The translations under genes and the position numbers were made by a program. Source: Terriglobia bacterium (lineage in GTDB: Bacteria > Acidobacteriota > Terriglobia > UBA7540). Taken from it: a DNA stretch of 24,000 nt. Numbering within the stretch: the stretch's first letter is position 1; each line of letters begins with the position of its first letter. Shown piece after piece: positions 4,262 to 23,329 of this stretch. Under the pieces are notes generated by a model. The model ran no database searches, had not been told where the DNA came from, and saw only the letters and a list, made by a program, of their open reading frames with translations. The stretch spans positions 1 through 24,000 of the forward strand of contig JBEKCQ010000055.1 in the NCBI GenBank assembly GCA_050014795.1, written 5' to 3'.

Positions 4262-4650
4262 TGACGATTTTGCTAGATACTTCCGTCATCATTGATGCCT
4301 TACGTAATCGCCGCGGCCGGCGTGAGCTGCTTCGGTCGCTCCTCGAACAGGGGCACGACCTGGCTTGCTGTGCGATCAATGTGGCTGAAGTGCATTCCGG
4401 CGTGCGGCCGCATGAGGCCAGCGCGACAAGCGAATTCATTGACAGCCTCGGGTATATCCAGATCAGTCGGGCAGCGGCCCGTCACGCGGGACAAATGAGG
4501 CTGGAGTGGCAACGCAAGGGGAGGACTCTGAGCCTGCCGGACGCCCTCATTGGTGCTGTAGCGCTCGACGAAGGTTTGGCCGTCGCCACGGATGACGTCC
4601 GGGACTTTTCGTTGCTCCATGTGAAGATGTGGCCCATGCCGGGAGTTTAA
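4261..4650 (+). CDS. vapC: PIN-domain toxin (VapC family ribonuclease)
   Basis: MTILLDTSVIID (first acidic residue), INVAEV, and DALIGAVAL...ATDDVRDF (C-terminal acidic residues). Translationally coupled to the upstream RHH gene. Confidence 0.85.
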   Translation: MTILLDTSVIIDALRNRRGRRELLRSLLEQGHDLACCAINVAEVHSGVRPHEASATSEFIDSLGYIQISRAAARHAGQMRLEWQRKGRTLSLPDALIGAVALDEGLAVATDDVRDFSLLHVKMWPMPGV

Positions 4651-4655
4651 CCATA

Positions 4656-8493: not shown

Positions 8494-8571
8494 AGGCCCG
8501 TAGCTCAGCCCGGTTAGAGCGCTACCTTGACACGGTAGAGGTCTGGGGTTCGAGTCCCCACGGGCCTACCA
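8494..8571 (+). tRNA. tRNA-Val (anticodon GAC), CCA encoded
   Basis: Hand-folded cloverleaf: acceptor AGGCCCG/CGGGCCT, D stem GCTC/GAGC, anticodon stem CTACC/GGTAG. The anticodon loop is TTGACAC, the T stem is TGGGG/CCCCA with TTCGAGT loop, discriminator A, then CCA. Confidence 0.9.
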
Positions 8572-8588
8572 TACGGCGTTTCAGCCCA

Positions 8589-8610
8589 TGTAGCGGAAAA
8601 TGTAGCGGGT
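8589..8610 (+). repeat. 22-nt motif TGTAGCGG-AAAA-TGTAGCGGGT, copy 1 (18 nt after the tRNA end)
   Basis: An internal tandem of TGTAGCGG with 12-nt period. It matches 17747-17768 at 18 of 22 positions, differing only in the 4-nt spacer. Confidence 0.5.
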
Positions 8611-8813
8611 ACCTGTGTTGATTGGCTTTGACTGGTTTGGGTTGGCCACGCGCAGATTCGTCACAAGAGCAAAGCTGATCGTAAGATTATATGTACTCGC
8701 CATTTATGGTTGTGTAGAATTCAGTTTAGCTGGAGACGCGGATTGTCATATAACATTCGGGACCCGGAGTAGCCGTGGCAGAGTTCTTGGCGTGCCTTCG
8801 GACGAGGCGGTGC

Positions 8814-9263
8814 ATGGGCGAGCGGCAACGGTCTCGACGTGGGAAGCGAACCGAAGCACAGATCAGCTTCAACATGTCTCGGGTGCGGAGCAGCGGGTCC
8901 AGGATCGAGCGGATGTTGGAGGAGGCTCTCCGGAAGGCTGGCGTCAGACCGAAGAAACAGGCTGCAATTGTTGGGCGACCAGACTTTGTTTTCCGTGCGG
9001 CGCGCGTGGCTGTGTTTTGCGACAGTCACTTCTGGCACGGGTACAAATGGAAAGAAAGGAAGCATGAGATAAAAAGCAATCGCAAATTCTGGTTAGAAAA
9101 GATCCAGCACAATATCAAACGGGATCGATATGTCAACCGCACGTTGAGAAGAGCAGGATGGCTGGTCGTTCGCTTCTGGCAACATCAGATCCTGCATTCG
9201 CCCAGCAAGTGCGCGGCCAAAGTCAAGCAGGTTGTTACAGCTCGAAGGACCGGACTAATTTAG
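8814..9263 (+). CDS. vsr: very-short-patch repair endonuclease (Vsr, T:G mismatch)
   Basis: RSKNMSR-like ISFNMSRVRSSGSRIE, GRPDFVF, AVFCDSHFWHG, NRKFWLEKIQHNIKRDR and GWLVVRFWQH all match Vsr family blocks. The start at ATG 8814 follows GAGG. Confidence 0.85.
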   Translation: MGERQRSRRGKRTEAQISFNMSRVRSSGSRIERMLEEALRKAGVRPKKQAAIVGRPDFVFRAARVAVFCDSHFWHGYKWKERKHEIKSNRKFWLEKIQHNIKRDRYVNRTLRRAGWLVVRFWQHQILHSPSKCAAKVKQVVTARRTGLI

Positions 9264-9265
9264 AA

Positions 9266-10357
9266 ATGGCAATCGTTGCGCTTGACCTTTTTTGCGGTTG
9301 CGGTGGGGTGACCTACGGACTTGCAAGAGCTGGAATCAAGGTCGCCTTGGGTATAGACATCGACGAGCGCTGCAGGTTTACCTTCAGACTGAACAACCCT
9401 GGGACAAACTTCCTTGTGGCTGACATCCGCGATGTTTCGGCACAGACATTACTGAAACACGTCCCCCATCTTACCGAAAGTGACTTCTTGCTGATCGCAG
9501 CATGCGCTCCTTGCCAGCCTTTCTCCTCTCAAAACAGGTCCAAGAACAAGACGTCAGGTCGTGCGATCCTGAACGAAGTAGAAAGAATAGTGCGAGAGTT
9601 GCGTCCCGAGTTCTTGTTTCTTGAAAATGTAACAGGAATACAAAAGGTTCCCGGCTTCAGTGCATTTCATCGCCTGTTGCGAGCTTTACATAACCTCAAG
9701 TACAAAGTGGAGTTTCGCAGTATTGACGCACTCTGGTATGGAATCCCGCAGAGGCGAAAGCGCCTGGTCCTCCTGGCCTCTGTTTACGGAAAGATTCCTT
9801 GGCCTGAGCAGACTCACGGTTTTGGTCCTGGGCTGCAAACGCCGGTCACGGTTCGTGAAGCGATAGCGCACTACCCGCCTTTGCAGGCGGGTGAGGCACA
9901 TCCAACAGTGCCTAACCATATCGCAGCCCGTTTGAGCCCACGCAATCTGGAGAGGATTCGCGCCACGGCTTGTGACGGCGGTAGCCGTAGCGAGTGGCCT
10001 AGACGCTTAGCTTTGTCCTGTCACGATACGCACGATGGTCACGAAGACGTGTACGGGCGGCTCCGCTGGGATGCTCTCGCGCCAACCCTCACAACCAAAT
10101 GCACAAGCATTTCCAATGGAAGATTCGGTCATCCAGACCAAGATCGCGCAATTTCTGCGCGGGAGGCTGCAGCTTTGCAGGGTTTCGACGATCGATTCGT
10201 TTTTTATGGGGGACTGCGTCAGATATCCGTTCAGATAGGAAATTCCGTTCCACCTGTTCTCGCCGAAAGATTCGGGAATGCATTCAAAGCCGAGGCTGAG
10301 GCGCTGAACGCGAACAAGAAGAGAATGAAATGGGCCTTACTCCTGGCTGGCCGATGA
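9266..10357 (+). CDS. dcm: DNA (cytosine-5)-methyltransferase
   Basis: Motif I DLFCGCGG, motif IV APCQPFS (catalytic Cys), motif VI ENV, motif VIII QRRKRL, motif X GNSVPP. The ATG lies 2 nt after the vsr stop. Confidence 0.9.
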   Translation: MAIVALDLFCGCGGVTYGLARAGIKVALGIDIDERCRFTFRLNNPGTNFLVADIRDVSAQTLLKHVPHLTESDFLLIAACAPCQPFSSQNRSKNKTSGRAILNEVERIVRELRPEFLFLENVTGIQKVPGFSAFHRLLRALHNLKYKVEFRSIDALWYGIPQRRKRLVLLASVYGKIPWPEQTHGFGPGLQTPVTVREAIAHYPPLQAGEAHPTVPNHIAARLSPRNLERIRATACDGGSRSEWPRRLALSCHDTHDGHEDVYGRLRWDALAPTLTTKCTSISNGRFGHPDQDRAISAREAAALQGFDDRFVFYGGLRQISVQIGNSVPPVLAERFGNAFKAEAEALNANKKRMKWALLLAGR

Positions 10358-10380
10358 GTTGACTAGGCAGATGAGGATAC

Positions 10381-12171
10381 CTACAAAAGGTACTGGCCTA
10401 GGTGTTCCAGAGCGTTATCGTGAACAGCCTTGATGACTTCATTTATTTTGTTTTCTACTGAATCAAAGGTCAGAGCCATCCCCTTCTTCTCCATAGCATG
10501 TAAGGCTTCCATAATTATAATGTCAACAAATCGCTGAAAGTGATACTCGCGCCATCTGGGCGATTCGGCTCCGTGCTGCCTATAGATTGCTGCAGCAAGT
10601 GGTCTGGAAGTGTTGATCCAATAGATTCCTGCGCCAACGTCTTGTGGCCGCTGGTAAACCGGGTTATGACGCGAACTCAGATCGACAGTTTGGGTGATTC
10701 CGAGAGGGTCGGGACTGTAGCTTGAAAGAAGGACTACGGGATGCCGCGTTCCTTTCTTTGGCTGGTCGCCCGCCCCTCCGCCTTTTGCGGCACCTTCACC
10801 ACCAGTGCCCCCTTTCGTTCTTGAGGAAGGACTTGTTCCACCCCCCGATCCGTCGATGCCCGTTCCCCCCGAACCAGATCCGGGTTCGGGCCCACCGAGC
10901 ACTTGAGTTAAGAGTCTATCCATAAACTGATTCTTCCAAGTGTTCAGGATTTTGTTAAATTCGTCTGTCAGCCTCAGGTTCTGAAGCGTCCGCTCTTTTG
11001 CTTCTTCCTTTTCAATCTTCTTCCCGACCTCATCAACTTGCTCTGCGATCCACCTTAAAAGCGCCCGCGTTCTGCGGTTATCTATCAGTTTTTCTCGGTC
11101 GTTCTTGACAGAATCTTCTTTTGGATCCTCAAGAATAGGGCAGAAGCATTCACCAAAAATGAACTCAGCCTGCGCGTACTGTTTGATATGCACGAGTTCT
11201 TGGATTCTATACGAGGCAATGACACCGATCTCCCCGAGGATGTCAATGCAGTTCAGTTCTGAAACGCGACTATTCCGCCCGAAAGGCTCCTTTGCAACCA
11301 TTAAGGAAAGATCGCCGGCATGGAACTTCTTGCTTGCGAACTCGATTTCCTCAACGTCCCCGTCTTCTTCGTACGGAAGGACCCGCGGAATCGGGATAGC
11401 CGGGAGGCTTTCAAATCCGGGACGGAGCTCGATTTGCTCACCCACGAGACGCTCCCAAACGAGCTCCCCGTTGTGCAACACTCTTATCGGTTTCCGTTGG
11501 ACGATCTTCCGAGCCTGCGGGTGCAACTTCATTTTCTCACAGAGTCGCGAAACCCGAATTGGACTCCGGACGCCGTCTGGCCGAATTCCACGGACGACCG
11601 TGAAACCAGTTCCTCCCGTCAAGATGCTATCTTTTGTCCTTTCTGGGAGGTCGAGCTCTCCTATCTCCGCCAGCGTCAGCGCTTCTCTTGGTGCGCAGGA
11701 CCTGTTTTGGAGCCCACGGGCGAATCCGTACCTCCTGTTCTCACTAAACCCAAACACATTCAGCATCCCGCCGCGATACGTAATGAAATAGGAGCGTTCA
11801 AACATTTGGCGCATATAGAACTTGCCACCGTTGCCGTGCCCGCCGTAGGTTCGTTTCTTGAGGCCGCGCGAAGCAGCCTTCGGGTCCCCCCAACGTTTCA
11901 AAGCCTTGTCTATATCGTCTGCAGTCATCCCGCAAAAGTCGATACACTCGAAGCTTGCAGGCTCAGTGTGTCCGGCATCCGTGAAGTTCAGCACAATGTG
12001 CTGTTGGTCATCGGGGATCGCCGGTTCCTCCCGGATGTAGGCATCGACCGAGTTCTTTATCCACTCGGGTAGGCCTTTTTCGTGGTTGAACTTGAACTCA
12101 TTTCCGATGATATCCAGAAGGTGATCGTCGATCACATTAGGCTGTTCGATTATGGAGACTTTAAGTGCCAC
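10381..12171 (-). CDS. GHKL (HATPase_c_3 / MORC-like) ATPase with Gly-rich linker and uncharacterised C-terminal domain
   Basis: Bergerat-fold motifs: N-box EWIKNSVDA, G1-like IDFCGMT, G2 YGGHGNGGKFY. A roughly 50-aa Gly/Ser/Thr linker (GGPEPGSGSGGTGIDGSGGGTSPSS...GGGAGD) precedes a roughly 115-aa C-terminal domain. The GTG start follows GAGGAGGAAA and overlaps the upstream gene by 11 nt. Confidence 0.75.
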   Translation of the reverse strand: MALKVSIIEQPNVIDDHLLDIIGNEFKFNHEKGLPEWIKNSVDAYIREEPAIPDDQQHIVLNFTDAGHTEPASFECIDFCGMTADDIDKALKRWGDPKAASRGLKKRTYGGHGNGGKFYMRQMFERSYFITYRGGMLNVFGFSENRRYGFARGLQNRSCAPREALTLAEIGELDLPERTKDSILTGGTGFTVVRGIRPDGVRSPIRVSRLCEKMKLHPQARKIVQRKPIRVLHNGELVWERLVGEQIELRPGFESLPAIPIPRVLPYEEDGDVEEIEFASKKFHAGDLSLMVAKEPFGRNSRVSELNCIDILGEIGVIASYRIQELVHIKQYAQAEFIFGECFCPILEDPKEDSVKNDREKLIDNRRTRALLRWIAEQVDEVGKKIEKEEAKERTLQNLRLTDEFNKILNTWKNQFMDRLLTQVLGGPEPGSGSGGTGIDGSGGGTSPSSRTKGGTGGEGAAKGGGAGDQPKKGTRHPVVLLSSYSPDPLGITQTVDLSSRHNPVYQRPQDVGAGIYWINTSRPLAAAIYRQHGAESPRWREYHFQRFVDIIIMEALHAMEKKGMALTFDSVENKINEVIKAVHDNALEHLGQYLL

Positions 12172-12811
12172 GAGTTTCCTCCTCGTTGCCCGATCTTGCA
12201 GATGACGTCTTCAGCCTAATCATATCTGCAAACCTCTCCACCATAAACTGATGAAACCGAGCAACAGCGACTAAGGAAAGGTCATCGGGGTTCGCATCCG
12301 ATATCTCATCCAGTGCGGATTTCACTGTTTCCAAACGCCCAATGAAATCGTTCCTCGTGGTGCGAACGCTAACACCCAGGTACTCGAACAAGTCTGAATC
12401 AATGATCTCGTCTTGCTTATTCGCGAGAAACAATTTGAAGCCCTCGAGGTGCTTTATCCTTTCTAGTTCTATCTGGGCGCCGCGTTCGATTCGGTGGCCC
12501 AGACGGGCCGAAGGGGGGCGACCCCCCTCAATAGCCTGAAGTCTTTGTACTTCTGCTAAACCGTGGGATGTCAGGGAGAACATCTTGTTCGAGGCCGAAA
12601 CCATCCCCTTTTTTCGATAATCGTAAAGGGGCTTGTGAACAATATCTCCTGAGTCTGGAAACTCAGGATGTCCTTTCAAGTGGAAGTCGCTAGCGTAGTC
12701 CCTGAACGCTTGTACGACTATATCCTCGTATCGAACCTTCCGGCGCCCCCCGTCAGAAAGGCGGTACAGACTGAGCAAAACCTTTTGCGCCATCGACAAC
12801 TGAGAGCTCAC
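12161..12811 (-). CDS. hypothetical protein (216 aa), possible N-terminal winged-helix; operon partner of the GHKL ATPase
   Basis: GTG start with an upstream GGAGGAGG/GGAAG. The N-terminus MAQKVLLSLYRLSDGGRRKVRYEDIVVQAF looks wHTH-like. There is no catalytic motif I can name. The 11-nt overlap with the GHKL gene implies co-translation. Confidence 0.6.
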   Translation of the reverse strand: MSSQLSMAQKVLLSLYRLSDGGRRKVRYEDIVVQAFRDYASDFHLKGHPEFPDSGDIVHKPLYDYRKKGMVSASNKMFSLTSHGLAEVQRLQAIEGGRPPSARLGHRIERGAQIELERIKHLEGFKLFLANKQDEIIDSDLFEYLGVSVRTTRNDFIGRLETVKSALDEISDANPDDLSLVAVARFHQFMVERFADMIRLKTSSARSGNEEETRGT

Positions 12812-12972
12812 GGCCGTTCTTCCGCCTCCTCCGACTCTGAGATATGTCCTCTTGTGCGCGAAACCAATCTTAACATATGCTCATGTCGCTGGAGAGGAAA
12901 GGCGCAGCCTCGATAGCAGCTCTCTTCCCCCCGTTTTCAAGCACGAAGAGCCTGATTGCGAAGGGCATTTGT

Positions 12973-14628
12973 ATGAATGATATTCCGGACCTTCCGGCGC
13001 ACTTGTCCCAGCGGCTAATCGGGGAACTCGACCTTTCCACACGGGCTTATAACGCTCTGAGCAAACACGGCGTGCGCACAATCAGCGATCTTGTCAAATT
13101 AAGCGACGAGGAAATGCTGCGCCTACCCTGGTTTGGTACGAAATGCCTGAATGAGGTGCACCAACTAACTCAGTCGCTCCTGCTGAGCTCAGCAAGGGAT
13201 CATGCAACTCCCAAGGAAGGCTTTGACCTTGCCGAATTAGCGCAATCGCATCCGAAAGACGCGTCCACATCCCTGCCGACGGATTATAGTCTGAGTGAGT
13301 GGGCGGTCCCAACACCGGCCAAGGGAGACTTGGATACGCCGATTGAACGCCTGCATTTGTCGCCTCGGGCGGCGAAAGTGCTTGGCTACCTTGGGATCAA
13401 GACGATTCGACAATTGCTTCGTTGCCCCAAGAATGCACTGCGCAAACAACCGAACTTTGGGCGTGTAAGCTTGTATGAGTTGGAGCGCAAAGTCTTCGAC
13501 AGCCTTGAGGGAAGTCACCAGCACGACTTCTCTCTAGGGACCAAGGCATTCACGGCAAGACTGCTTGCCTGCCTCCCCGAGCGCCAACAGAGGGTGATCG
13601 CAGATAGATACGGGCTGTGGGACGGTATTGCGGAGACACTGCAGGACATCGGAGACAAGTTGGGTCTGACGCGTGAGCGTATACGTCAAATAGAAGATAA
13701 GAGCCTTCGTCGAATTCGTGGTCGATTTGGTCTCCACATTGTAGTCGCATTTCTGCGCGCGACGTTCAGCGAGGCGCTCTCCCATCGACTTAGCGGGTGC
13801 GCTGGAATCCTAAGCGAAGACGAAGCCATGCAGGGCATGGCGAATGATTGCACCCTCGAAGAGGCGGCGCTGGCAGTTGCCTTTATGCGGGACATATGCC
13901 CGACCGAGGATGACATATTCGGGCTCTGTCTACGCAAAGTGGGGGACGGCGTCTATTGCGTAGAGCCAGAAACGGCCGAACGCTATGAGAAGGTACTCGG
14001 ATTGATCGAGAGCGGACTCGAAGGGCGTGGGGGGCCAGTAGCGGAAGGGAAACTCTGTGACGAAGTGCTGGAACGAACAAGGGCCTCTGAGCATCTTGAC
14101 TGGAGGCCGCTTATCCAGCGAGTTCTCGCCGTCTCGCCCTCTTTAACTCGCCTACGAAATGGAACTGTATGTCTCTCTGGGTGGACTGAGGTTCGCGGTC
14201 GCGATTACCCCAGTCTGGCAGTAACAGCGCTCGTCGCCCTGGGCCGTCCCGCTCACTACAAGGAGATTTGGGAGAAGGCCATGGCGCTCTATCCGCGACT
14301 AGGTGAGCTTAGTATACATGCGATTCATAACCGCCTGACTTCCAGATCGGACAAGTTCGTGTGGGTCGGGAAAGGAACTTATGGACTGAAAGCATGGGGA
14401 CTCAAAAGACCTCCGTATATAAAGGACAAACTAACGGAGCTGCTTTCGGAGGCCAAGTACCCGCTCCCTTATTGGCATCTCAAGGTCAAGGTGCTGGAGG
14501 TGTGCAACTGTAAGGAGGAATCGGTGCGCATGACGTTGGACCTGAATCCCCGCATTTTCAGGAAATTCGCAGACGACCAATATGGTCTTCGCGAGCACTA
14601 CGAGCGAAGGACCCATCGCCAAGGCTAG
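12973..14628 (+). CDS. multi-HTH protein: 2x RNA polymerase alpha-CTD-like (HhH) + sigma-70 region 4 + C-terminal HARE-HTH-like domain
   Basis: Module 1 LDLSTRAYNALSKHGVRTISDLVKLSDEEMLRLPWFGTKCLNEV and module 2 LHLSPRAAKVLGYLGIKTIRQLLRCPKNALRKQPNFGRVSLYEL resemble RpoA-CTD. LPERQQRVIADRYGLWDGIAETLQDIGDKLGLTRERIRQIEDKSLRRIR is a textbook sigma-70 region 4. The C-terminal ALGRPAHYKEIWEKAMALYPRLGELSIHAIHNRLTSRSDKFVWVGKGTYGLKAWG resembles HARE-HTH / RpoE-delta N-domain. The start is ATG 12973 (MNDIPD); the track alternative is 12877. Confidence 0.7.
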   Translation: MNDIPDLPAHLSQRLIGELDLSTRAYNALSKHGVRTISDLVKLSDEEMLRLPWFGTKCLNEVHQLTQSLLLSSARDHATPKEGFDLAELAQSHPKDASTSLPTDYSLSEWAVPTPAKGDLDTPIERLHLSPRAAKVLGYLGIKTIRQLLRCPKNALRKQPNFGRVSLYELERKVFDSLEGSHQHDFSLGTKAFTARLLACLPERQQRVIADRYGLWDGIAETLQDIGDKLGLTRERIRQIEDKSLRRIRGRFGLHIVVAFLRATFSEALSHRLSGCAGILSEDEAMQGMANDCTLEEAALAVAFMRDICPTEDDIFGLCLRKVGDGVYCVEPETAERYEKVLGLIESGLEGRGGPVAEGKLCDEVLERTRASEHLDWRPLIQRVLAVSPSLTRLRNGTVCLSGWTEVRGRDYPSLAVTALVALGRPAHYKEIWEKAMALYPRLGELSIHAIHNRLTSRSDKFVWVGKGTYGLKAWGLKRPPYIKDKLTELLSEAKYPLPYWHLKVKVLEVCNCKEESVRMTLDLNPRIFRKFADDQYGLREHYERRTHRQG

Positions 14629-14813
14629 GCTCGTCTGTTTCTGCAAGCGCACAATCGCATTGAGGGTATGACCTGCAATCGAGCTCATATTCAAGCACTC
14701 ACGCGCAGGGTTCGCCTCGCGCCCCTCCCTGCTGAGCAAAAGCTTGAAGTACCGCAATGATAGACGTAATCTTACGGAAACTCGCGACCCAGATAGCTGC
14801 AAAGGAGAGGAGG

Positions 14814-15611
14814 ATGGGCCACCAAATGCTACTTAATCGTGACGAAATCATGAGCAATGAGGTCATCCGGAATGGCGCCGAGAGTGCCTATCGCGCTGCA
14901 AGCTACGACCTGCGAGTCGGAAGAATCCTCACAACCTCTGGGGAGGAAAAGACGACCTTCATAATTCCGCCTCAAGGCATGGTTGACGTAATCTCACAGG
15001 AGAGGGTCATTTTGAAAGGGAGCATCGCCGGGTATGCTACGGTGAAAACGAGCTTGTGCCGGAATGGCATCCTCGCGATAAACATCGGGATTATTGACCC
15101 CGGTTATGAAGGGCTCATCTCCAGCACCCTCATAAACTTCAGCAAATGCCCATTCGCTCTCAGAGCCGGCGACCCTTTCCTTCGACTCACATTCCATCAG
15201 TACACTGCGCCCCGAACCCTTCCGGCTGCTCCATCCAAGGGGGATGAGGAATACGTTCAAGAACGAAAGAAGATGGTGCAAGAACGATTCTCTGCCACGT
15301 TTCTGGATGTCCCTCAGACGATTGAAAACTTGACCCCACCCTTAATCAAAAGGGTTCTAGATGATTGGAAGAGTGCTCTTTACAAGTGGGCACCGCTTTT
15401 TGCCTTCGTTATTGCTCTGCTCGCCTTTCTTGTGAACGTTGGTGCCACTCGCTTCGGGCAGCCCAAGGTGTCGAAGGAGCAATTAAAGGCAGAGGTGGTT
15501 GCCGAAATTCGCGATGAGAACCACAGGATTTTTGAAGAACGCCTGCAGCAAGTGGAGCGGCAGACTCAGCAATTACTTACTGAGAGGGAGCATCAGAAAA
15601 AGGTACAGTGA
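14814..15611 (+). CDS. dCTP deaminase/dUTPase-fold (Dcd-like) protein with C-terminal TM helix and coiled coil
   Basis: ASYDLRVG, VKTSLCRNG and IGIIDPGYEG...ALRAGDPFLRLTF align without effort to E. coli Dcd blocks (ATVDVRLG, GRSSLARLG, RIDPGWSG...ALRPGMLIGALSF). A hydrophobic helix WAPLFAFVIALLAFLVNVGA (nt 15387-15446) is followed by a charged heptad-like tail. The ATG 14814 is preceded by AAGGAGAGGAGG. Confidence 0.75.
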   Translation: MGHQMLLNRDEIMSNEVIRNGAESAYRAASYDLRVGRILTTSGEEKTTFIIPPQGMVDVISQERVILKGSIAGYATVKTSLCRNGILAINIGIIDPGYEGLISSTLINFSKCPFALRAGDPFLRLTFHQYTAPRTLPAAPSKGDEEYVQERKKMVQERFSATFLDVPQTIENLTPPLIKRVLDDWKSALYKWAPLFAFVIALLAFLVNVGATRFGQPKVSKEQLKAEVVAEIRDENHRIFEERLQQVERQTQQLLTEREHQKKVQ

Positions 15612-15637
15612 TAGAATAGTACGGAAAGGAAGTGTAG

Positions 15638-16630
15638 GTGGACAGCTTCGATTCCGTCGACGAGATTCAAAAGTGGGTTCTGGAATCATTGCTGGCACGG
15701 GGTGGCTCAACTCGGCCACGTGGTTCGGCCACACTTGAACTATTCCCAGTCTCGTTCATGCTTCGACATCCACGAATGAGATGTGTTACGAACCCGGCGA
15801 GACGATGGATTTTGCCATTGGCCCTGGGGGAATTTTGCTGGCACCTCTCCGGCTCAAATGATGTTCACTTCATCGAATATTACTCCAAACGCTGGAGAGA
15901 ATTCGCAGAGAGCGGTTCCTCGACCATCTGTGGCAGCTCTTATGGTCATAAGATATTTTCCCGAAGCGCCGGTGAACCCAGTCAATGGGACCGGCTTGTC
16001 GAGCTACTGCGAGTCGACCAACAATCGAGGCGTGCAGTGCTTGGTCTCTTCGACCCGGCTCGTGGCCTCAATCAAGATGAGAGAGATGTTGCCTGCGCCT
16101 GCTCCTTGCAGCTCATGATTCGGTCTGGTCGGCTCTTAGCCTTTGTCTACATGCGGAGCAATGATGCCATCTGGGGTCTGCCTTACGACATTTTCTTTTT
16201 CACTATGCTCCAGGAGTTGCTTGCCTGCGAGCTTGGCTTAGAACTTGGCTATTATTATCACTTCGCGGCTTCGCTTCACCTCTACGAACGTCACTTTGAA
16301 CTTGCCCACCGAATCGTTGAGACCGAGCCAGGTTCGCACTTTGAAATGCCACCGATGAGTGTGCACAAACAGGTTGACGATTTTCTGCGATTGGAGGCCG
16401 TACTCAGGTCCAGGCACGAGCTGTTACCCCGGCAGGTCGGAACGCTACATCCCTACTGGCGTGATTTGCTGGCCGTACTCGAGTGGTATAGTCAGGCAAA
16501 GGGTGCCGGGGGTTATCAAGCGGTGGCTGAGAAGGTTCCTACACCGTCCCCATATGGTCTGCTGTTGAGAAATATGTTGCCCAAAGCAGAGGCGGGAACG
16601 CGTGCCTATGCGGCGGATTATTCAGATTGA
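15638..16630 (+). CDS. thymidylate synthase (ThyA) family enzyme, predicted deoxycytidylate-specific (hydroxymethylase or methylase type)
   Basis: Gap-free block YMRSNDAIWGLPYDIFFFTMLQELLACELGLELGYYYHFAASLHLYERH against E. coli ThyA [50 protein letters not shown]. Also a catalytic Cys block VACACSLQLMI, SRRAV (phosphate-binding Arg pair) and LGEFCWHL (Glu). The GTG start follows GGAAAGGAAG. There is a roughly 90-aa C-terminal extension. Confidence 0.8.
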   Translation: MDSFDSVDEIQKWVLESLLARGGSTRPRGSATLELFPVSFMLRHPRMRCVTNPARRWILPLALGEFCWHLSGSNDVHFIEYYSKRWREFAESGSSTICGSSYGHKIFSRSAGEPSQWDRLVELLRVDQQSRRAVLGLFDPARGLNQDERDVACACSLQLMIRSGRLLAFVYMRSNDAIWGLPYDIFFFTMLQELLACELGLELGYYYHFAASLHLYERHFELAHRIVETEPGSHFEMPPMSVHKQVDDFLRLEAVLRSRHELLPRQVGTLHPYWRDLLAVLEWYSQAKGAGGYQAVAEKVPTPSPYGLLLRNMLPKAEAGTRAYAADYSD

Positions 16631-17099
16631 GGCTCACGCAAAGTTCCTGCAAATAGCTAAGCGCGTGAGTTTAGGGTCGAACTGTGTGCGTGGCCAAGTT
16701 GGAGTCGTGCTTGTCCAGGGGGGCAAGATTGTTTCGACGGGCTGGAACGGGGTGCCGACATCATTTCGCGATTGCCTTTCCGCAGGCTGTCCGCGATGCA
16801 AGCACCGGACTTCCACGGGAAGAGGGTATGACCGGTGTATCTGCGTCCACGCTGAACAGAGCGCCATTGCTACGGCTGCCCGCAACGGAATTCCTCTGAG
16901 GAGTGCAACAATGTATGTGAATCTCCGCCCTTGCCTTGGGTGCCTGAATCTGGCACTCACAGCCGGTGTTCGGAAAATCGTCTATGAAGTATCATGGACA
17001 TATCCAAGCAACATAGAGGCAGCCTATGAGAGGATTGCCAAAAGGCTGTCGTCTTTCCTTCGCGTCGATTCTCGTCGGAATAAGGCTGGAATTCGATGA
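16602..17099 (+). CDS. dCMP deaminase (ComEB / deoxycytidylate deaminase family, zinc-dependent)
   Basis: CVHAEQSAI (HAE) and RPCLGC (PCxxC) zinc motifs, plus an upstream Cys cluster CLSAGCPRCKH typical of dCMP deaminases. It is a single 165-aa domain. The start (GTG 16602 or ATG 16608) overlaps the 3' end of the ThyA-like gene. Confidence 0.85.
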   Translation: MPMRRIIQIEAHAKFLQIAKRVSLGSNCVRGQVGVVLVQGGKIVSTGWNGVPTSFRDCLSAGCPRCKHRTSTGRGYDRCICVHAEQSAIATAARNGIPLRSATMYVNLRPCLGCLNLALTAGVRKIVYEVSWTYPSNIEAAYERIAKRLSSFLRVDSRRNKAGIR

Positions 17100-17230
17100 T
17101 TGCAGCCGTCCGGTGAACCCACCTTCCGCGTTAAGAATTACACCTGATAGTTTCCCGGAGACGTGCATGACATGCGGCTTGTGCGCTGAGCGCCCACGTC
17201 ATGGTGGTCGGTTCGGTTGCCCTTCTGGTC

Positions 17231-17527
17231 TCAATTCGTTAGATGGCTGCCTACATCGGCGTTCTGTGCGAAGGCCTGCTTGTGGTGAAATGCCCGCCTG
17301 AATGCTTCGAGCTTCCGGATTGCGTCCCGCCGGTACTCGTCGATGACCTTGGCGTACGTCTGCAAGATGCCAGCAGATGAGTGCCCCATCATTTGAGCCA
17401 CGAAGAGATCCGGCGTCCCTGAAGCACTCAGCCTGCTGGCCACTGTGGCTTGGAGGTTGTGGCTAGCGTTGATGCCGCCCCTACTGGCGGCCGTCGCCCA
17501 TCTTACTGTGACTGGGACGACGTGTAG
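17231..17527 (-). pseudogene. tyrosine recombinase 3' remnant (C-terminal ~98 codons only)
   Basis: The reverse strand reads ...INASHNLQATVASRLSASGTPDLFVAQMMGHSSAGILQTYAKVIDEY.... This is a degenerate HxLRHT box (SHNLQAT) followed by the GHSS...Y catalytic-Tyr box. An in-frame stop at 17528-17530 bounds the frame, and no N-terminal two-thirds exists before the next gene. Confidence 0.65.
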
Positions 17528-17686
17528 TCAGGGGCACATTAGGTGCCGGCATCGGCTAGCGGCTTCGATGGCTTCCCTCTTAACTCAAAGCAACAAAAGG
17601 TGTTATGCGCCAACCAAGGGCGGGCGCTACCCTGCCTAGGTAGCGGGCAGCGCTTTTCCCCGGTGTTGCGGCCCAAACCTAACCCT

Positions 17687-18811
17687 TTATTGTACAACAA
17701 GTTGCGGCCTTCTTTCCTGCCCGCCAATTCCAGATTGGAGGGCAGTTGTAGCGGCTTTTGTAGCGGGTTCAGCCACTTTCCCAGGTGCCAGAATCAGTTC
17801 TACGGCCTTTCTTTTCAATTCGTTAGCGGGGTGCATGTAGCGGCGTGTCATCACAATTGACGCGTGCCCCGCCAGTTCTTGAATCACTGCCAGCGGCACA
17901 CCGGCGTCACTGAGACGCGAGCAAAAGGTGTGGCGCAGCTGGTGAAAAGTGATATGCGGAATTTCGGCAATCTTAACCGCCCGGCAGAAGGAATGTTTGA
18001 TATCTCCAACATGCTCCTTGGAGTTCTTTGGTGAAGGGAACACCCACTCGCCCTCGACCTCTTCGCGCCACTGTTGCAGCGTTGCGCGCAGCACCGCGTT
18101 CACGTACATCACCCGCCCTTGGCCTGCCCTGGTCTTCGACTTCCGCACGATCAGAATGCCGTTGTCCAGGTCGATGTCGGCCCAGCGTAGTCGAAGGATT
18201 TCGCCGCGCCGGAGGCCCGTATACACGGCCACCAAGATAATCGGCTTCAGGTGCGGTGCGAGGAAATGCAGTTCCGGGTGGTCACAGGCCTGCAGGAGCT
18301 TCGCCTCTTCCTCATACGAAAGGACGCGCTCGACTGGCGGTCCGTCCAGCTTGAATAGTTTGGCGTCACGGGCGCCGTTGGTTTCGACCAACTCCCACTT
18401 CACCGCCGTGCTCAGCATGCTTTTGACCAGGCCGACCTCACGGTTGATTGAAGATTTCTTCAAGCCCGCGTCCAGGCGCTTCTGCTTGAATTTCTCCACG
18501 GTGTAAGCTGAGATTTCATTCAACCTGTACCGCCCGAGGAACGGAACCAAGGCACGCGGGACGTAGTACCTTTCTACCGTGAAGGCCGGTTTGTTGGCTT
18601 CGCTGTATTTCAGGTAGCGAGCGGCAAAGTCAGAAAACTTCGGATTCTCCTTCTTCGCCAGGCCGTGTTTCCCAAGGGCCAGCTGGGCCTTGTGAACCGA
18701 CTCAATCCTGAGTGCCATCTTGCGGCTTGTCAGTTTCGTTGGCCGCTGGATATGCTGGCCTTCGAACCAGAAGTGGTACCACCAGACTCCCCCGCGCTTG
18801 TAGATGCTCAT
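17687..18811 (-). CDS. int: site-specific tyrosine integrase
   Basis: MSIYKRGGVWWYHFWFEGQ N-terminus, Arg box GLRRGEILRLRW, HQLRHTFCSRL, and LAGHASIVMTRRYMH (catalytic Tyr). The ATG 18811 is preceded by GAGGGAGAAG. Confidence 0.9.
   Translation of the reverse strand: MSIYKRGGVWWYHFWFEGQHIQRPTKLTSRKMALRIESVHKAQLALGKHGLAKKENPKFSDFAARYLKYSEANKPAFTVERYYVPRALVPFLGRYRLNEISAYTVEKFKQKRLDAGLKKSSINREVGLVKSMLSTAVKWELVETNGARDAKLFKLDGPPVERVLSYEEEAKLLQACDHPELHFLAPHLKPIILVAVYTGLRRGEILRLRWADIDLDNGILIVRKSKTRAGQGRVMYVNAVLRATLQQWREEVEGEWVFPSPKNSKEHVGDIKHSFCRAVKIAEIPHITFHQLRHTFCSRLSDAGVPLAVIQELAGHASIVMTRRYMHPANELKRKAVELILAPGKVAEPATKAATTALQSGIGGQERRPQLVVQ
17747..17768 (+). repeat. 22-nt motif TGTAGCGG-CTTT-TGTAGCGGGT, copy 2 (inside the integrase 3' coding end)
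   Basis: Matches 8589-8610 at 18 of 22 positions. On the reverse strand it encodes PATKAATT, about 20 codons before the int stop. Confidence 0.5.
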
Positions 18812-18995
18812 TTTCTTCTCCCTCAACGGGCTGACGATGCTGATCGACGAATTCCTCCAGGTCACTTTCGCGGAATCGCACCAGGCGGCCAATCTTGCGG
18901 TGGGAAATCCGCCTCTGGGCGACCCAGAGGTAGAGCGTTTGCGGTTTCACCCCCAGCTTGGCGGCGGCTTCTGCAATGGTTAGAAGCTTTTCCAT
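18702..18995 (-). CDS. xis: excisionase / HTH_17 (MerR-like) DNA-binding protein
   Basis: MEKLLTIAEAAAKLGVKPQTLYLWVAQRRISHRKIGRLVRFRESDLEEFV is a typical excisionase-family HTH. The ATG 18995 is preceded by GGGGGTGGG. The reading frame continues 110 nt past the int start. Confidence 0.75.
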   Translation of the reverse strand: MEKLLTIAEAAAKLGVKPQTLYLWVAQRRISHRKIGRLVRFRESDLEEFVDQHRQPVEGEENEHLQARGSLVVPLLVRRPAYPAANETDKPQDGTQD

Positions 18996-19250
18996 TGCCC
19001 ACCCCCAAGGGTTCTGCGCCCCACACGCCCCTGGGCAAAGCCCCCTAGCACCCCGCCAGGGGCAACACCCGGCCCGCCAGCACCCCCCGGCAGGGGTTGG
19101 CTTGGCCCCAGAATCAGCGGCGCCGTGGGCCGCATTTGGCCGCCAAGGCCCCTGCAAGCCGTGGGCTGCTGCCCCCGCAGCCACAGCAACGGGAAACTGC
19201 CCCAGCGGGTCTGCAAGCGGCATTTTCGGGCATTCGGCTTGGGCCATATA

Positions 19251-19295
19251 CCACTGCTAAATATAGCACATTTTGTGCTGTTTATAAAGCAGTGG
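19251..19295. promoter_or_regulatory. imperfect 45-nt palindrome upstream of the xis-int leader
   Basis: CCACTGCT (19251-19258) pairs with AGCAGTGG (19288-19295). There is an inner AGCAC/GTGCT pair around TTTT. It sits at the sharp boundary between a G/C-rich leader and an AT-rich spacer. Confidence 0.35.
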
Positions 19296-19529
19296 ATAGC
19301 AGTTTCTTTACTAGTATGACATTTTGACCCTTCGGTCATTTTGCCCGTTTGAATAACCACCAATGAATCCCCGAATCCGTTTATGATTTTCCCCTTTAGG
19401 GATTTGCGTTCCAATCGACACCTCCTCTGCCTCAGCTGTTGGTCAAACTACCTGTTGCTCTAGCAGCCTGACCACAGGCTATGGGCATCGTAGGCGAGCG
19501 GTTTTGCAGGGTACAGGCAATGAATGGGG

Positions 19530-20447
19530 CTAATTCTTGAAGGTGACTTGGGAGCGGGCTTTTCGGGCTCGTCTAATCCCCTTCTCAATCGTGTTGTATT
19601 CATGGCGTCGCTCCAAGGCGAGGAGCGCCGTAGCGAGGTGTTTGGGTTGCCAGGTCTCTGGCTTTTCCCACGATGCAGCCACGTCCTGCCTGCCGTAAAG
19701 AATCTCAGCGAACGCTTCACCTCCGAGTATGTATGACCCTCCCCGCATTCGGGACACCTGCTTCCACAATCTCTCTCGAACGCTTTTTAGCACTCCGGCC
19801 TTGGTGACGGCTTTGGACTTCTCTTGTTCAATCGCAGCTCTGACGACATTGTGAAGGTTTAGGCATTCGGCGACCAGAACCTTGAACCTTCTCATCAGCC
19901 ACTTGTCTTCCTCGCTTCCCCTGCGCCGCCCTTTGGGTCGCTTAGGGGAAGCCTTCCATCCTTCAAATATTTCCACGAACTCCTCATCGAATTTAGGGTG
20001 ATGAAACTGGTCGCAGTAAAGAACCTGGAGCACGTTTTTCCAAGTCTGCGCGTAGGCAGCGTATCCGACCGTTACCAGTTGGGACCAAATGGTGTCTTCA
20101 CCGGCAGCCGGGACCTCCCACAAAGCTTCTTGAAACATGTCTGCCAGGTTTATCCCGAGGCCAGATGGAAGGGCCTTGTTCGTCTTAGCGATCTGCGGTG
20201 GAGGCGCTGGGAATGTCATCACGATTTGCACGACACGATGTCTATCGCGCAATGAGAGCTGCGGGGGCGGACATTCGCTCACAAGCCAATTGCGGAGTTC
20301 GGCCTCTATCGAGCGTGGAAACCTCATCGGTACTCCTAGGTCCTTGCGCCACGCTTGCTGCATTTCGGCGTCTGGACCACGCCACTTTTTGCCCCGAGGT
20401 TCTTTCTCCTGCTCGTGATTGGCCTTTGAATCTAGTGGCTCTGCCAT
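19530..20447 (-). CDS. hypothetical protein (305 aa)
   Basis: Long ORF with ordinary amino-acid composition, on the same strand as xis-int and divergent from the primase gene. I recognise no motif. Confidence 0.6.
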   Translation of the reverse strand: MAEPLDSKANHEQEKEPRGKKWRGPDAEMQQAWRKDLGVPMRFPRSIEAELRNWLVSECPPPQLSLRDRHRVVQIVMTFPAPPPQIAKTNKALPSGLGINLADMFQEALWEVPAAGEDTIWSQLVTVGYAAYAQTWKNVLQVLYCDQFHHPKFDEEFVEIFEGWKASPKRPKGRRRGSEEDKWLMRRFKVLVAECLNLHNVVRAAIEQEKSKAVTKAGVLKSVRERLWKQVSRMRGGSYILGGEAFAEILYGRQDVAASWEKPETWQPKHLATALLALERRHEYNTIEKGIRRARKARSQVTFKN

Positions 20448-20746
20448 GACGAATCCCCCTCCACAAGATGTGCTGTTTGGAGTCTACACGAGACGAGAAC
20501 GATTCGGCACTGCTCCCTGCTAGGTGCGAAATGCAGGGCATGTTTTGACCCCATTACGTGAATTCACGCCTTTCCCCCCCTCTGATATTCCTCCTCATGG
20601 CAAGAACATTTCTCGAGTAGGCGAGACAGTTCTTCGGCCGAAAGTAAATTGAATTGGAAGCGGCGCCAGGCAGCGCCGGCAGTTTTTCCCACCTCCTGGG
20701 TTCTGCCACGCTGCCTGGCGTCGGCCAAAAAACTCAGGAGGGGTTC

Positions 20747-23122
20747 ATGCGTAGACCAACTTCAACGGAAGTGGCAGCTTTCCGCTCGCTCTTTGTGGCT
20801 CGACCTGACGCCTATGTCCTGTGGCGGGCCGGAAATCCCGTGGCCGTACACCGCCCACTGGACAAGCAGGTCTTGGAGGGTCATTTAGCGGGCGATGGCC
20901 GGGTGGGCACGTATCTGCTTCTGCGAGGAAACCTGACGCCGTTCCTGGTTTTCGATCTCGATGAGCCGAACAAAAGTCTGGTGCTGAAGATACGGAAGCG
21001 CCTCAAGCGACATCGCATACCCGCATATGTTGAGCGGTCGAAATCCAAGGGTTTCCACATCTGGGTATTCTTCGAAAAACCGCTTCACGCGAAATTGGCG
21101 CGCCGGTTCGCGAGCGCCTTGATCGCTGACCTAGGCAACACGAAAATCGAGATTTTCCCAAAACAGGATTGCGTTCCGAAGGAAGGGCTGGGCAATTGCA
21201 TTTGGCTGCCGTTGCATTCGCCGGACGTTGTCAGACGGCGCACAGTCTTTCTCGACAGCAACTTCCATTCGATTCCCGATCAATGGGGCTTCCTGGCTGA
21301 AGTGCGGCGCGTGGGGGAAAGGCGAGTCCGGCGGGCTTTGGAAACAATGGCGCTGGAGGCGCCAGCGAACAGCAGCCCAGCTTCCAATCAGATCCAGCGG
21401 TTTCCCAGAACGAAGCAGTTCCCGCGACTCCGGAATCATGCGCCCAAACTGGCTCCTTGTGCTCAGGCGATACTGCTGCAAGGGGCTGACGAGGGCAATC
21501 GAAATGTGGCCCTGTTTACACTCGCGAAACATCTGCGGGGCGCCAGCTTAGACCAAGCCGCCGCCGGAGAGTTGGTACGCGCTGCCAACATGAACTGCCG
21601 CCCTCCCTTGTCGGAGCAAGAGGTCCGGGGCATCATTCAATCAGTTTTCGCCAAAGGCTACACATCACTCGGCTGTGACAAGCCGTTCATCGCCTCCCTG
21701 TGCAGTGACCAGTGTCCCGTGAAAAGAGCCAATGAGAAAAGGGTTGGGACGTCTGCAATTCGGATTCTCGACCAGGCCGAAGCTCGGCCGCGTATTCATC
21801 CTTCGCAGGCTTATGTGGACGGGAAGTTGTGGTACGGCTTGAACGCCGGGAGAGAGGAGGTGTGGGTAAACAGCGACAGGCAGGCCAATTCAATGGAAGA
21901 AATGCTCGATAGGTTCACCTTGGAGAGAAAGCCCACCAAGATGAGGTGGAGCACGGCCGGCGTCAAGAGGTTCCTGCGGGAAAGCGGGTCCGTCAGCCCA
22001 GCTGAACTCTTCTTGAAGATACGCGGCTTGCTGGAGGATCACATTCGCTTTCGGTCCCGCTGGCAGCCCACACTAGTTGCCCTGTGGACGATGGGGACAT
22101 ACGTCCATCAGGCCTTTGCGTATTATGGCTACCTCTGGCTAACATCGCCGGGACGCCGTTCGGGCAAATCTCTACTGCTGGAGATCATTTCTTGCCTTGC
22201 CTATAACGCGACGCCGGTGATGACAGACCCCTCCGAGGCTTCGCTTTACCGGGATACCGCAGCCAACTCTAGCACGCAGGTCCTGGACGAGGTCGAATCG
22301 CTCCGGCGGGCCGATCAGGAGAAGCACTCTGGTTTGATGGCCATGCTCAACTGCGGGTTCAAGGCAGGCGCAAAAGTACCCCGGTTTGACATCAGTACAA
22401 ATCGCGTGGAGGACCTCGACGCCTACTGCCCTCGAGCGTTAGCCGGAATTAGTCGCCTGCATCCAGTCCTAGCTGATCGGTGTTTTAAGATATTCCTGAA
22501 GCGCAAGAGGCCGGACGACAAGGTCAAACGCTTTTCCGAGAGAAGATTGGCTTCAAAGCTCCAGGGGATGCGTGACGACCTGCATGTGTTTGGTCTGCTC
22601 TATGCACCCCCCGTTGGGGAACGCTACGACGAATCTGATTCTCTAGTCTTGCCACCCGAAGTCGATGACCGTGCGCGGGATATATTGGAACCGCTGTTCG
22701 CCATTGCCTGGGTCGTCGACAATGCAGGTCCTGAGCTGGCTATAGCGGAGGTTCTGACGGTAGCCGCCAGGGCTATTGCGCGGGATCGCGCAAGTGATGA
22801 AGGCGAAGATGAAGAGATAACTGCGGCGCTGGAGATCCTGGTGCAGGACTATCCCGAAGGCAAAGACAAGTGGATTCTGAGATCCGACAGGGCGGTAGGA
22901 ATTTTCAAGAGTCATGAGTCGCTGGAATGGATGGAGTACCCTCGACAGGCTGCGAACCTATTGCGCCGCCTGGGCTTCAGGTCAGCACCGCACCGAATCG
23001 GGCGAAAGGTAACACGCGGCTACCAAATCCGCAGGCATGTCTTGATCGACATGTGCAAGTGCTATGGCGTGAACTTGGCTAATTCTCAAAATGAGGCGTT
23101 ACCGGCGTTACAGGCGCGGTAG
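20747..23122 (+). CDS. replication protein: archaeo-eukaryotic primase (prim-pol) domain + PriCT-like + DUF3631-like P-loop C-terminal domain
   Basis: AEP motifs LVFDLDEP (DxD), SKGFHIWVFF (sxH) and EIFPKQD. PriCT-like NRNVALFTLAKHL...SEQEVRGIIQSV. C-terminal SPGRRSGKSLLLE (P-loop-like) and QVLDEVESL (Walker B-like). The ATG 20747 is preceded by AGGAGG. Confidence 0.85.
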   Translation: MRRPTSTEVAAFRSLFVARPDAYVLWRAGNPVAVHRPLDKQVLEGHLAGDGRVGTYLLLRGNLTPFLVFDLDEPNKSLVLKIRKRLKRHRIPAYVERSKSKGFHIWVFFEKPLHAKLARRFASALIADLGNTKIEIFPKQDCVPKEGLGNCIWLPLHSPDVVRRRTVFLDSNFHSIPDQWGFLAEVRRVGERRVRRALETMALEAPANSSPASNQIQRFPRTKQFPRLRNHAPKLAPCAQAILLQGADEGNRNVALFTLAKHLRGASLDQAAAGELVRAANMNCRPPLSEQEVRGIIQSVFAKGYTSLGCDKPFIASLCSDQCPVKRANEKRVGTSAIRILDQAEARPRIHPSQAYVDGKLWYGLNAGREEVWVNSDRQANSMEEMLDRFTLERKPTKMRWSTAGVKRFLRESGSVSPAELFLKIRGLLEDHIRFRSRWQPTLVALWTMGTYVHQAFAYYGYLWLTSPGRRSGKSLLLEIISCLAYNATPVMTDPSEASLYRDTAANSSTQVLDEVESLRRADQEKHSGLMAMLNCGFKAGAKVPRFDISTNRVEDLDAYCPRALAGISRLHPVLADRCFKIFLKRKRPDDKVKRFSERRLASKLQGMRDDLHVFGLLYAPPVGERYDESDSLVLPPEVDDRARDILEPLFAIAWVVDNAGPELAIAEVLTVAARAIARDRASDEGEDEEITAALEILVQDYPEGKDKWILRSDRAVGIFKSHESLEWMEYPRQAANLLRRLGFRSAPHRIGRKVTRGYQIRRHVLIDMCKCYGVNLANSQNEALPALQAR

Positions 23123-23329
23123 AAATAGTTGATTTCCAGTACTAGACGAAGCGTTACGGCCTTGGGCTGTGACGCATGACTTAGGCGGCCAAAACACCTT
23201 GTTTCCTGCAATCGTAACGCTGGTAACGGTTGAATGCCGGCCAGCGCGGGGCGCAGGGGGAAGCAATGCGCCAACGATTGGCTCAATTCGTAGCCAAGAA
23301 TGTTCCTTTGGTCTTGAAGGGGGTGGACA

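Follow-up and report, generated by a model that had tools for sequence, protein, structure and literature searches.

ParaMORC GHKL ATPases occur together with the cytosine methyltransferase Dcm and the endonuclease Vsr in restriction-modification (R-M) neighbourhoods, and MutL, itself a GHKL ATPase, stimulates Vsr (discussed in PMC2292703). That work makes no mention of sigma factor or RNA polymerase (RNAP) modules. For the HARE-HTH domain a role in reading DNA modification has been proposed (PMC3417536, PMC10853773), the GHKL-nuclease Shedu was found experimentally to be anti-phage (PMC12137116), and a paper on HEPN proteins tied the Fic and HEPN-Ymh toxin families to R-M and paraMORC contexts. 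Our subject is a gene at positions 12973-14628 of a 24,000-nucleotide stretch of Terriglobia DNA (contig JBEKCQ010000055.1), the whole of which is called the window below. Its product, the target protein, joins two C-terminal domains of the RNAP α subunit (αCTD), sigma region 4 (σ4) and four winged helices (WH1 to WH4) in one polypeptide. On balance, we consider it probable that this protein is the multivalent DNA-targeting subunit of a mobile, Dcm-linked module with a MORC-like GHKL ATPase and an R-M-like purpose.

The architecture itself has a precedent. In 2012, Aravind and Iyer reportedly described bacterial proteins that combine RNAP α-subunit and sigma features with HARE-HTH, and the reported arrangement (αCTD copies, σ4 and HARE-HTH, without sigma region 2) is the same as that of the target. 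This architecture and the association of paraMORC with Dcm are prior computational knowledge, whereas the cassette described here is uncatalogued. New relative to that reported account are the reading of four winged helices, an analysis of conserved residues, a census of gene orders and the replacements found in the target's slot. The cassette is distinguished by a MORC-like ATPase that is invisible to hidden Markov models, an obligatory 216-residue partner and the replaceability of the target subunit by other enzymes; neither the GHKL nor the 216-residue core protein matches any model in PADLOC 2.0 or NCBIfam 20.0. With the MORC/paraMORC R-M systems it shares a GHKL ATPase with an S5/transducer domain and intact motifs, adjoining Dcm and Vsr on mobile DNA, and DNA-bound MORC2 is the top structural match of that ATPase. 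It differs from them in that neither a helicase nor a recognisable restriction endonuclease partner occurs in the window or in clade A, and in that the HATPase_c and HATPase_c_3 models miss its GHKL domain.

The open reading frame of the target stops at 14628, and its longest form, from 12877, would encode 583 residues. The start at 12973 (551 residues) was accepted because the identical database protein P0001, annotated from a Terriglobia metagenome-assembled genome, is also 551 residues long, homologue alignments begin at residue ~4-7, and a GAAGGG lies 9-14 nt upstream. Pfam detects both αCTDs (RNA_pol_A_CTD, E 8e-29) and σ4 (Sigma70_r4, E 7e-15) and finds no match to the α N-terminal domain or to sigma regions 2 and 3 (neither region at E<=1), which agrees with a preliminary description that had read two αCTDs and a σ4 without region 2 in one polypeptide. 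The rpoA and rpoD/sigma models of NCBIfam match with C-terminal pieces only (about 55 C-terminal residues for sigma; positions ~230-312 for rpoA, with scores far under the cut-offs). The same description had placed a HARE-HTH-like domain at the C-terminus. In the target this domain is sub-threshold (aa 416-475; 16.7 bits against a Pfam cut-off of 25.9, E 0.0097); we accept it at the family level as a profile-based assignment, since 24 of the 47 family members have a Pfam match to it (best E 1.9e-7), as do distant relatives. RNA_pol_A_CTD is present in all 47. The domain is the third winged helix and is followed by a fourth, so its placement had to be revised, and the supposedly uncharacterised middle region of ~200 residues is in fact a helix, WH1, another helix and WH2.

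In the AlphaFold2 model (47-sequence alignment as input), the mean predicted local distance difference test score (pLDDT) is 86.8, WH3 adopts a winged-helix fold at high confidence, and each unit from WH1 to WH4 runs helix-helix-helix-strand-strand. Foldseek superposes σ4 on solved σ4 structures, to which it is 43-46% identical, at a root-mean-square deviation (rmsd) of ~1 Å; between the αCTD parts and solved αCTDs the deviation is 0.7-0.9 Å. The C-terminal half resembles tandem winged-helix arrays, of which the top match in the PDB is a WH1-4 fragment of SelB (E 1e-4), followed by UFL1/DDRGK1, Dcc1 and RPC62. By PDB sequences, σ4 is closest to group 1/2 sigma factors (RpoD, SigA, RpoS) and not to the extracytoplasmic function sigmas. 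Seven nucleic-acid-binding folds in a row make up the target: two helix-hairpin-helix αCTDs, σ4 and four winged helices. RpoA, group-1 sigma factors and RpoE-delta are the donors of its three module types. The idea of a true sigma factor or α paralogue was rejected, the protein having neither σ2/σ3 nor an α N-terminal domain, and as it also lacks the acidic tail of delta it is not an RNAP subunit by architecture.

Which residues were kept is informative about the role of these folds. Within the clade, the αCTD positions of the DNA-binding "265 determinant" are retained (R265 and G296 in 92/93, S299 in 77/93, N268 in 76/93 and K298 in 73/93), and those of the activator-contacting "287 determinant" are not, with V287 variable and residues 315-317 mostly deleted. 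The σ4 recognition helix, TRERIRQIE, matches residues 583-591 of E. coli σ70. Here R584, E585, R586, R588, Q589 and E591 occur in all 47 clade members, and the first five are 85-92% conserved over 140 superfamily domains; R603, which contacts αCTD and activators, is lost and the σ C-terminal tail is often deleted. Mean identity within the family is 68% for σ4 and 71% for WH4, 33-38% for αCTD1, WH1 and WH2, and 13-15% for the linkers, making σ4 and WH4 the constrained core of the protein. As a whole the target evolves faster than any other member of the cassette: relatives are 33-45% identical to it, compared with 66-74% for the GHKL protein, 58-64% for the 216-residue protein and 57-62% for Dcm.

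The neighbouring, divergently transcribed operon had been labelled GHKL, and this label is borne out by fold only. By sequence, the 596-residue protein gives nothing significant in Pfam (E<=10), NCBIfam or PADLOC, while its matches in the PDB, by sequence as well as by profile, stay at chance level (best E 0.13). Its predicted structure matches DNA-bound MORC2 (E 2e-10 over ~440 columns), and then Hsp90/TRAP1 and MORC3. Family-invariant GHKL motifs are E36-x3-N40-x2-D43, D78/G81 and GGHGNGGK, the last of which resembles the GNGxK motif of MORC proteins. Past the transducer follow a helix of ~50 residues, a disordered linker rich in Gly and, at the C-terminus, a small conserved domain without a discernible nuclease motif, and the fold contains no MutL endonuclease or dimerisation domain. 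The gene for the 216-residue protein lies directly upstream of the GHKL gene in 71 of the 72 loci open to judgement. Searches of Pfam, NCBIfam and PADLOC with this protein returned no match, and the nearest hints were HTH_DeoR (E 0.11) and MarR (E 0.95); the MarR hint and an alignment judged by eye indicate that it probably carries a winged helix at its N-terminus. Dcm and Vsr, the remaining members, are fused into a single polypeptide of 560-600 residues in L124 (5233-6975) and also in L120, L143, L161 and L170.

The grouping of these genes is not peculiar to the window. With the GHKL partner as the probe, 80 metagenomic loci were gathered and their components tabulated by jackhmmer; linkage was counted in the 24 non-identical loci whose flanks each extend for 4 kb or more. 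All 24 have the 216-residue protein, 23 have Dcm, 20 have Vsr and 19 have a member of the target family. The order of these components differs between clades A to E, with five or more arrangements in all, and because membership recurs despite the reshuffling there is strong evidence that the cassette is a functional unit. The divergent layout is found in the window clade only. In the other sampled clades the target gene stands at the 3' or 5' end of the GHKL operon, and in L006-L009 the coding regions of the cassette overlap. More distant loci of the 596-residue family have a co-directional, overlapping operon that encodes proteins of 75, ~213 and ~610-640 residues and then an αCTD/σ4 protein of 483-813 residues, in most cases with Vsr and Dcm alongside. 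A link between the target and the GHKL operon, as first noticed in the window, is real and conserved across loci.

The surroundings on the two sides of the target behave differently. In five contexts of relatives (33-45% identical) the left side is constant, with Vsr, Dcm, a protein of exactly 596 residues and one of ~202-216 residues in the window layout, whereas the right-hand genes are all unrelated (PMT_2, enolase, unknowns, rpoD/dnaG). The preliminary description had named a wide occurrence of the architecture among unrelated neighbours as something that would count against its interpretation; this holds for its spread and for the right-hand genes, but the left-hand neighbours are conserved. 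A profile search of 1.84 billion representatives returned 879 clusters of the target family at E<=1e-30 (at least 879 at 50% identity), with lengths of 500-2194 residues and mostly from uncultured soil and groundwater bacteria. About 60 full-length relatives lie at 40-50% identity, nearly all of them metagenomic. The 596-residue family comprises more than 762 clusters at 90% identity and spans Nitrospirota, Thermodesulfovibrionales and bacteria of the candidate phyla radiation (CPR). PF26169 is listed in the precomputed Pfam annotation of many target homologues and was not reported by our own Pfam scan.

The number of αCTD-like stretches per protein ranges from one to ~10 matched stretches, and some members add GyrA-CTD blades or HhH_5, a modularity that suggests a DNA reader. 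A CPR version in L006 (8811-11252) places GyrA C-terminal β-pinwheel blades and HhH_5 before the αCTD and σ4. Among annotated replicons there is one distant relative, a "hypothetical" protein of an Ensifer plasmid, and none in phages. A viral fold search found no viral protein that shares the full target fold, only single-domain matches to phage sigma factors and to short αCTD or σ4 proteins. Among the BFVD matches are independent proteins of ~95-140 aa from uncultured Caudovirales, whose sole annotation is RNA polymerase alpha C-terminal domain or Sigma70_r4. A distant variant without the αCTD/σ4 gene, which differs in gene order (a 75-aa gene, a GHKL-like protein of ~760-830 residues and then a partner of ~230 residues), is found in L176 (6689-10014; Ensifer adhaerens plasmid pCTYH.Ch1_3) and L171-L174, that is, on a conjugative plasmid and viral contigs, where all the proteins are annotated as hypothetical.

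A contig scan with the target alignment was dominated by housekeeping sigma factors, the σ4 helix being the most conserved peptide, and also yielded CPR proteins with σ4 and winged helices but without the partner genes. Directly downstream of these stand-alone σ4 and HARE-HTH proteins (330-410 aa; L177-L179, 6001-8848; L180, 4246-6590) lies a DUF8128 gene, and in one of the two contexts (L177-L179, 8971-10728) a DUF87/TrwB-type (HerA/TraG-like) ATPase comes after it. The set may be a separate σ4-winged-helix/ATPase system. Elsewhere, a Fic/DOC gene and a HEPN Ymh-family gene stand directly downstream of the αCTD/σ4 gene (L008, 10916-11671; L009, 10278-10973), and these may be back-up toxins.

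In the five full-flank loci from which the target family is missing, its place is sometimes taken by something else. In L133 (2635-4551) and L135 (1484-3400), a full-length GHKL restriction enzyme of the BbrUII/HgiDII family (NF050001, E 2e-121) occupies the same operon slot, upstream of the 216-residue, GHKL, Dcm and Vsr genes, and in L148 (2903-5416) the slot holds an SMC-like AAA_23 ATPase. Locus L130 adjoins a DISARM DrmE-like gene, and nothing relevant is present in L157. BbrUII/HgiDII enzymes own a GHKL domain and a hint of a NucS-like nuclease; because the target has neither part, the swap must be a functional substitution and not homology. Replacement by a restriction enzyme or an SMC-like ATPase fits a subunit that targets the module to DNA.

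Linkage, folds, conserved DNA-contact residues, evolutionary rate and slot substitutions all support such a targeting subunit. In the mechanism we propose, the GHKL ATPase, paired with the 216-residue protein, would be the engine of the module. The target would bind DNA multivalently, with σ4 reading a -35-like hexamer and the αCTDs the A/T-rich minor groove, as the retained DNA-contact residues lead us to infer. HARE-HTH and the other winged helices may read the state set by Dcm, and the target would then recruit or license the GHKL dimer to clamp DNA that does not carry the self mark, with a restriction-like exclusion of foreign DNA as the outcome. Being the most conserved parts, σ4 and WH4 probably form the fixed interfaces with DNA and the conserved partners. 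The Fic, HEPN-Ymh and DISARM DrmE-like neighbours, together with an integrase-bearing low-GC island at a tRNA-Val gene (see below), suggest a conflict system. The CPR core of σ4 and HARE-HTH beside DUF8128, with a HerA/TraG-like ATPase in one context, suggests the same kind of pairing arrived at independently, and was counted in favour of the proposal.

Several points weigh against it. The target family is absent from 5 of the 24 full-flank loci, so the protein is not obligatory, and one such locus, L008, lacks Dcm and Vsr, so that dependence on methylation is not universal. Vsr is the only recognisable nuclease of the cassette, and in a profile comparison (hhalign) the 596-residue protein aligned with the HgiDII-type enzyme at E 0.017 and a probability of 2.7%, with its C-terminus unaligned. 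A generic DNA-binding role also leaves it unexplained that αCTD, σ4 and HARE-HTH all come from RNAP-associated proteins. The searched literature holds no binding, ATPase or defence experiment on any member. Lastly, the residue numbering used above depends on E. coli RpoA and σ70 reference sequences, which are internally consistent with published numbering.

Should the proposal be right, a widespread family has turned the promoter-reading parts of RNAP into the targeting device of an ATPase linked to cytosine methylation. R-M biology would gain a MORC-like branch that is poor in nucleases, and there would be a bacterial model of how MORC ATPases are recruited to DNA. As the domain and defence-system libraries now in use detect neither the GHKL nor the 216-residue partner, annotation pipelines miss the cassette.

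Another view of the target is that of a dedicated transcription regulator, acting like an R-M controller (C) protein or an activator through σ4 and the winged helices on the divergent spacer and timing the methylase against the GHKL operon. We regard this as unlikely, although σ4 and winged helices are classic regulator folds and the two units are indeed transcribed divergently. The shared control region, given earlier as 160 nt, exists and measures 161 nt, but the divergence is specific to the clade. In relatives (L003, L004, L093-L097) the spacer carries a common block, GAGTAAACTC-N6-8-TAATATA-N2-CTCAA, with palindromic GAGT/ACTC arms and the TAATAT element, which may serve as a promoter plus operator or as a methylase site. 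The copy in the window is degenerate, and a promoter scan found no σ70-consensus promoter within 12812-12972. Controller proteins are small helix-turn-helix proteins (~80-100 aa) with an upstream operator, whereas the target has 551 residues and seven domains, and family members of 480-1100 residues or more with seven or more DNA-binding folds are far past any known controller. Nor is a regulator expected to be exchanged for a restriction enzyme or an SMC-like ATPase. Because the target gene lies within the GHKL operon in other clades, and overlaps in L006-L009, a subunit is preferred over a dedicated regulator. The coupling to DNA-modification state that had been suggested for such a regulator is plausible, given Dcm in 23 of 24 loci; it is the regulatory role that operon membership elsewhere speaks against.

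It is also conceivable, though distinctly unlikely in our judgement, that the target acts through RNAP. It might dock on the core, with σ4 on the β-flap and HARE-HTH in the manner of delta, and so steer or block transcription, or it might mimic the holoenzyme as a decoy or guard that traps phage factors and then triggers the GHKL ATPase. The RNAP origin of all three module types is the obvious attraction here. The σ4 is group-1-like, being 43-46% identical to that of SigA, and superposes on the σ4 of β-flap-chimera and phage G1 ORF67 structures; two αCTDs and one σ4 make up the upstream-promoter face of the holoenzyme, and rapid evolution fits an arms race. What was conserved, however, is the set of DNA contacts, and not the activator and anti-sigma contacts (the αCTD 287 determinant, residues 315-317 and σ R603, besides the often deleted σ tail). 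The protein has no σ2/σ3 or α N-terminal domain with which to hold the core, its relatives differ widely in how many αCTD-like stretches they carry and may have GyrA-CTD or HhH_5 as well, and the stand-alone CPR core is not paired with RNAP genes. The decoy for phage factors entertained in the preliminary description thus finds no support in the residues or in the αCTD count.

A bolder idea, which we rate as decidedly improbable, is that the cassette corresponds in prokaryotes to the MORC silencing of eukaryotes. The αCTDs (on UP-like DNA) and σ4 (on a -35-like hexamer) would find strong promoters on DNA without the Dcm mark, the array of HARE-HTH and winged helices would check the mark, and the MORC-like GHKL clamp would be loaded and shut the promoters. 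If true, this would amount to a non-nucleolytic, methylation-gated and promoter-targeted form of restriction.

Very improbable is a self-contained methylation-plus-repair unit, in which the GHKL protein would take the part of MutL and stimulate Vsr at T:G mismatches left by 5-methylcytosine deamination, with the target as a DNA-loading or lesion-finding accessory: Vsr in 20 of 24 loci, its occasional fusion to Dcm, the MutL precedent (PMC2292703) and the lack of a recognisable restriction nuclease speak for it, but Vsr accompanies most Dcm genes whatever the context and is uninformative, the module is also found with neither Dcm nor Vsr (L008) or in the company of Fic, HEPN-Ymh, restriction enzyme or DISARM genes, it sits in mobile low-GC islands, and the ATPase fold is nearest to MORC and Hsp90 and has no MutL endonuclease or dimerisation domain.

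Likeness of the proposed targeting subunit to components of other described systems is local. The anti-phage system MZA (sigma-like MzaA and the ATPase MzaB, in NCBIfam names) likewise has a σ4-bearing protein and an ATPase. Similarity to MzaA is limited to σ4 (E 4.6e-12), where the target scores 45.6 bits against a cut-off of 800 for NF041931, and MzaB weakly matches the GHKL-type enzyme of L133 and gives no match to the GHKL protein of the window. The cassette further differs in its domain order and in having no Z1 or AIPR genes; a whole-word literature search for MzaA and MzaB returned defence-system census papers only. PglW of type 2 BREX has an αCTD-like stretch that aligns locally with the second αCTD of the target (34.5 bits against a cut-off of 990 for NF033442), but it is a kinase/nuclease giant and unlike the target.

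Table 1. Coordinates of the cassette, the parts of the target gene and other island genes in the window.
Feature	Coordinates	Strand	Remarks
Target gene	12973..14628	+	551 aa; αCTD-αCTD-σ4-WH1-WH2-WH3(HARE-HTH)-WH4; open reading frame, Pfam, AlphaFold2, Foldseek, identity to P0001
αCTD copy 1 (aa 9-77), helix-hairpin-helix	12997..13203	+	Pfam RNA_pol_A_CTD; R265, N268, G296, K298 equivalents kept
Disordered linker (aa 78-118)	13204..13326	+	pLDDT <50 at aa 79-106; family mean identity 13%
αCTD copy 2 (aa 119-180)	13327..13512	+	Second Pfam stretch; PglW-like local match; Foldseek rmsd 0.7-0.9 Å
Sigma region 4 (aa 188-252)	13534..13728	+	Pfam E 7e-15; RpoD/SigA/RpoS nearest in PDB; rmsd ~1 Å
Winged helix 1 (aa ~276-331), variable	13798..13965	+	Secondary structure H-H-H-E-E; SelB-like tandem winged-helix match; 38% identity
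Winged helix 2 (aa ~356-405), variable	14038..14187	+	AlphaFold2 model, Foldseek, family identity
Winged helix 3 = HARE-HTH (aa 410-476)	14200..14400	+	Pfam HARE-HTH aa 416-475, sub-threshold; 24/47 in family
Winged helix 4 (aa 480-541)	14410..14595	+	AlphaFold2 model; 71% mean identity, among best-conserved parts
Divergent spacer, 161 nt	12812..12972	.	Block of relatives (see text); window copy degenerate
216-aa partner	12161..12811	-	N-terminal winged helix inferred, remainder helical; directly upstream of GHKL gene, 71/72 loci
MORC/Hsp90-fold GHKL ATPase, 596 aa	10381..12171	-	AlphaFold2 pLDDT 78; Foldseek MORC2+DNA E 2e-10; invariant motifs; 66-74% identity in clade
Dcm, C5 cytosine DNA methyltransferase	9158..10357	+	Pfam E 2.5e-49; TIGR00675 over cut-off; 23/24 full-flank loci
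Vsr very-short-patch endonuclease	8775..9263	+	Pfam; TIGR00632 over cut-off; 20/24 loci
dC-nucleotide operon, three genes	14757-17099	+	dCTP-deaminase/dUTPase-like, ThyA-family enzyme, dCMP/cytidine deaminase
Tyrosine integrase	17687-18892	-	Island cargo
Archaeo-eukaryotic primase (AEP) PrimPol with PriCT and DUF3631	20654-23122		Island cargo

The cassette lies in a low-GC island (8494-24000). The GC fraction drops from 0.60-0.63 to 0.51-0.58 directly past a tRNA-Val gene (8494-8571) and stays low to the window end. No copy of the tRNA-Val 3' end that would mark attR occurs within the window, so the right end of the island must lie beyond 24000. Downstream of the target is the deoxycytidine (dC) nucleotide operon, whose three products all score under the NCBIfam cut-offs. 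The closest solved relative of its ThyA-family enzyme is the CMP 5-hydroxymethylase MilA (E 6e-44, against ~1e-17 for thymidylate synthases), and judged by these matches the operon looks like a 5-hydroxymethyl-cytosine nucleotide pathway, and it resembles gp56, gp42 and cd of phage T4. The target had been placed at the hub of the island, with a suggested role in the expression of the GHKL or the dC-nucleotide module. A hub that couples the two did not hold up: the dC genes occur in none of 175 related loci (1.9 Mb in total) and the downstream genes differ in every context. Because the dC genes are absent from related loci and the GC content is continuously low past tRNA-Val, the cassette, the dC operon, the integrase and PrimPol are co-resident cargo of one island. 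Since no terminator is predicted between 14628 and 14757, local read-through from the target into the dC operon is possible, though such a link would not be conserved. Elsewhere in the window, where the GC content is higher, a PIN-domain gene (4261-4650, + strand) and the beginning of a β-CASP/metallo-β-lactamase RNase gene (4629-6044, + strand) overlap.

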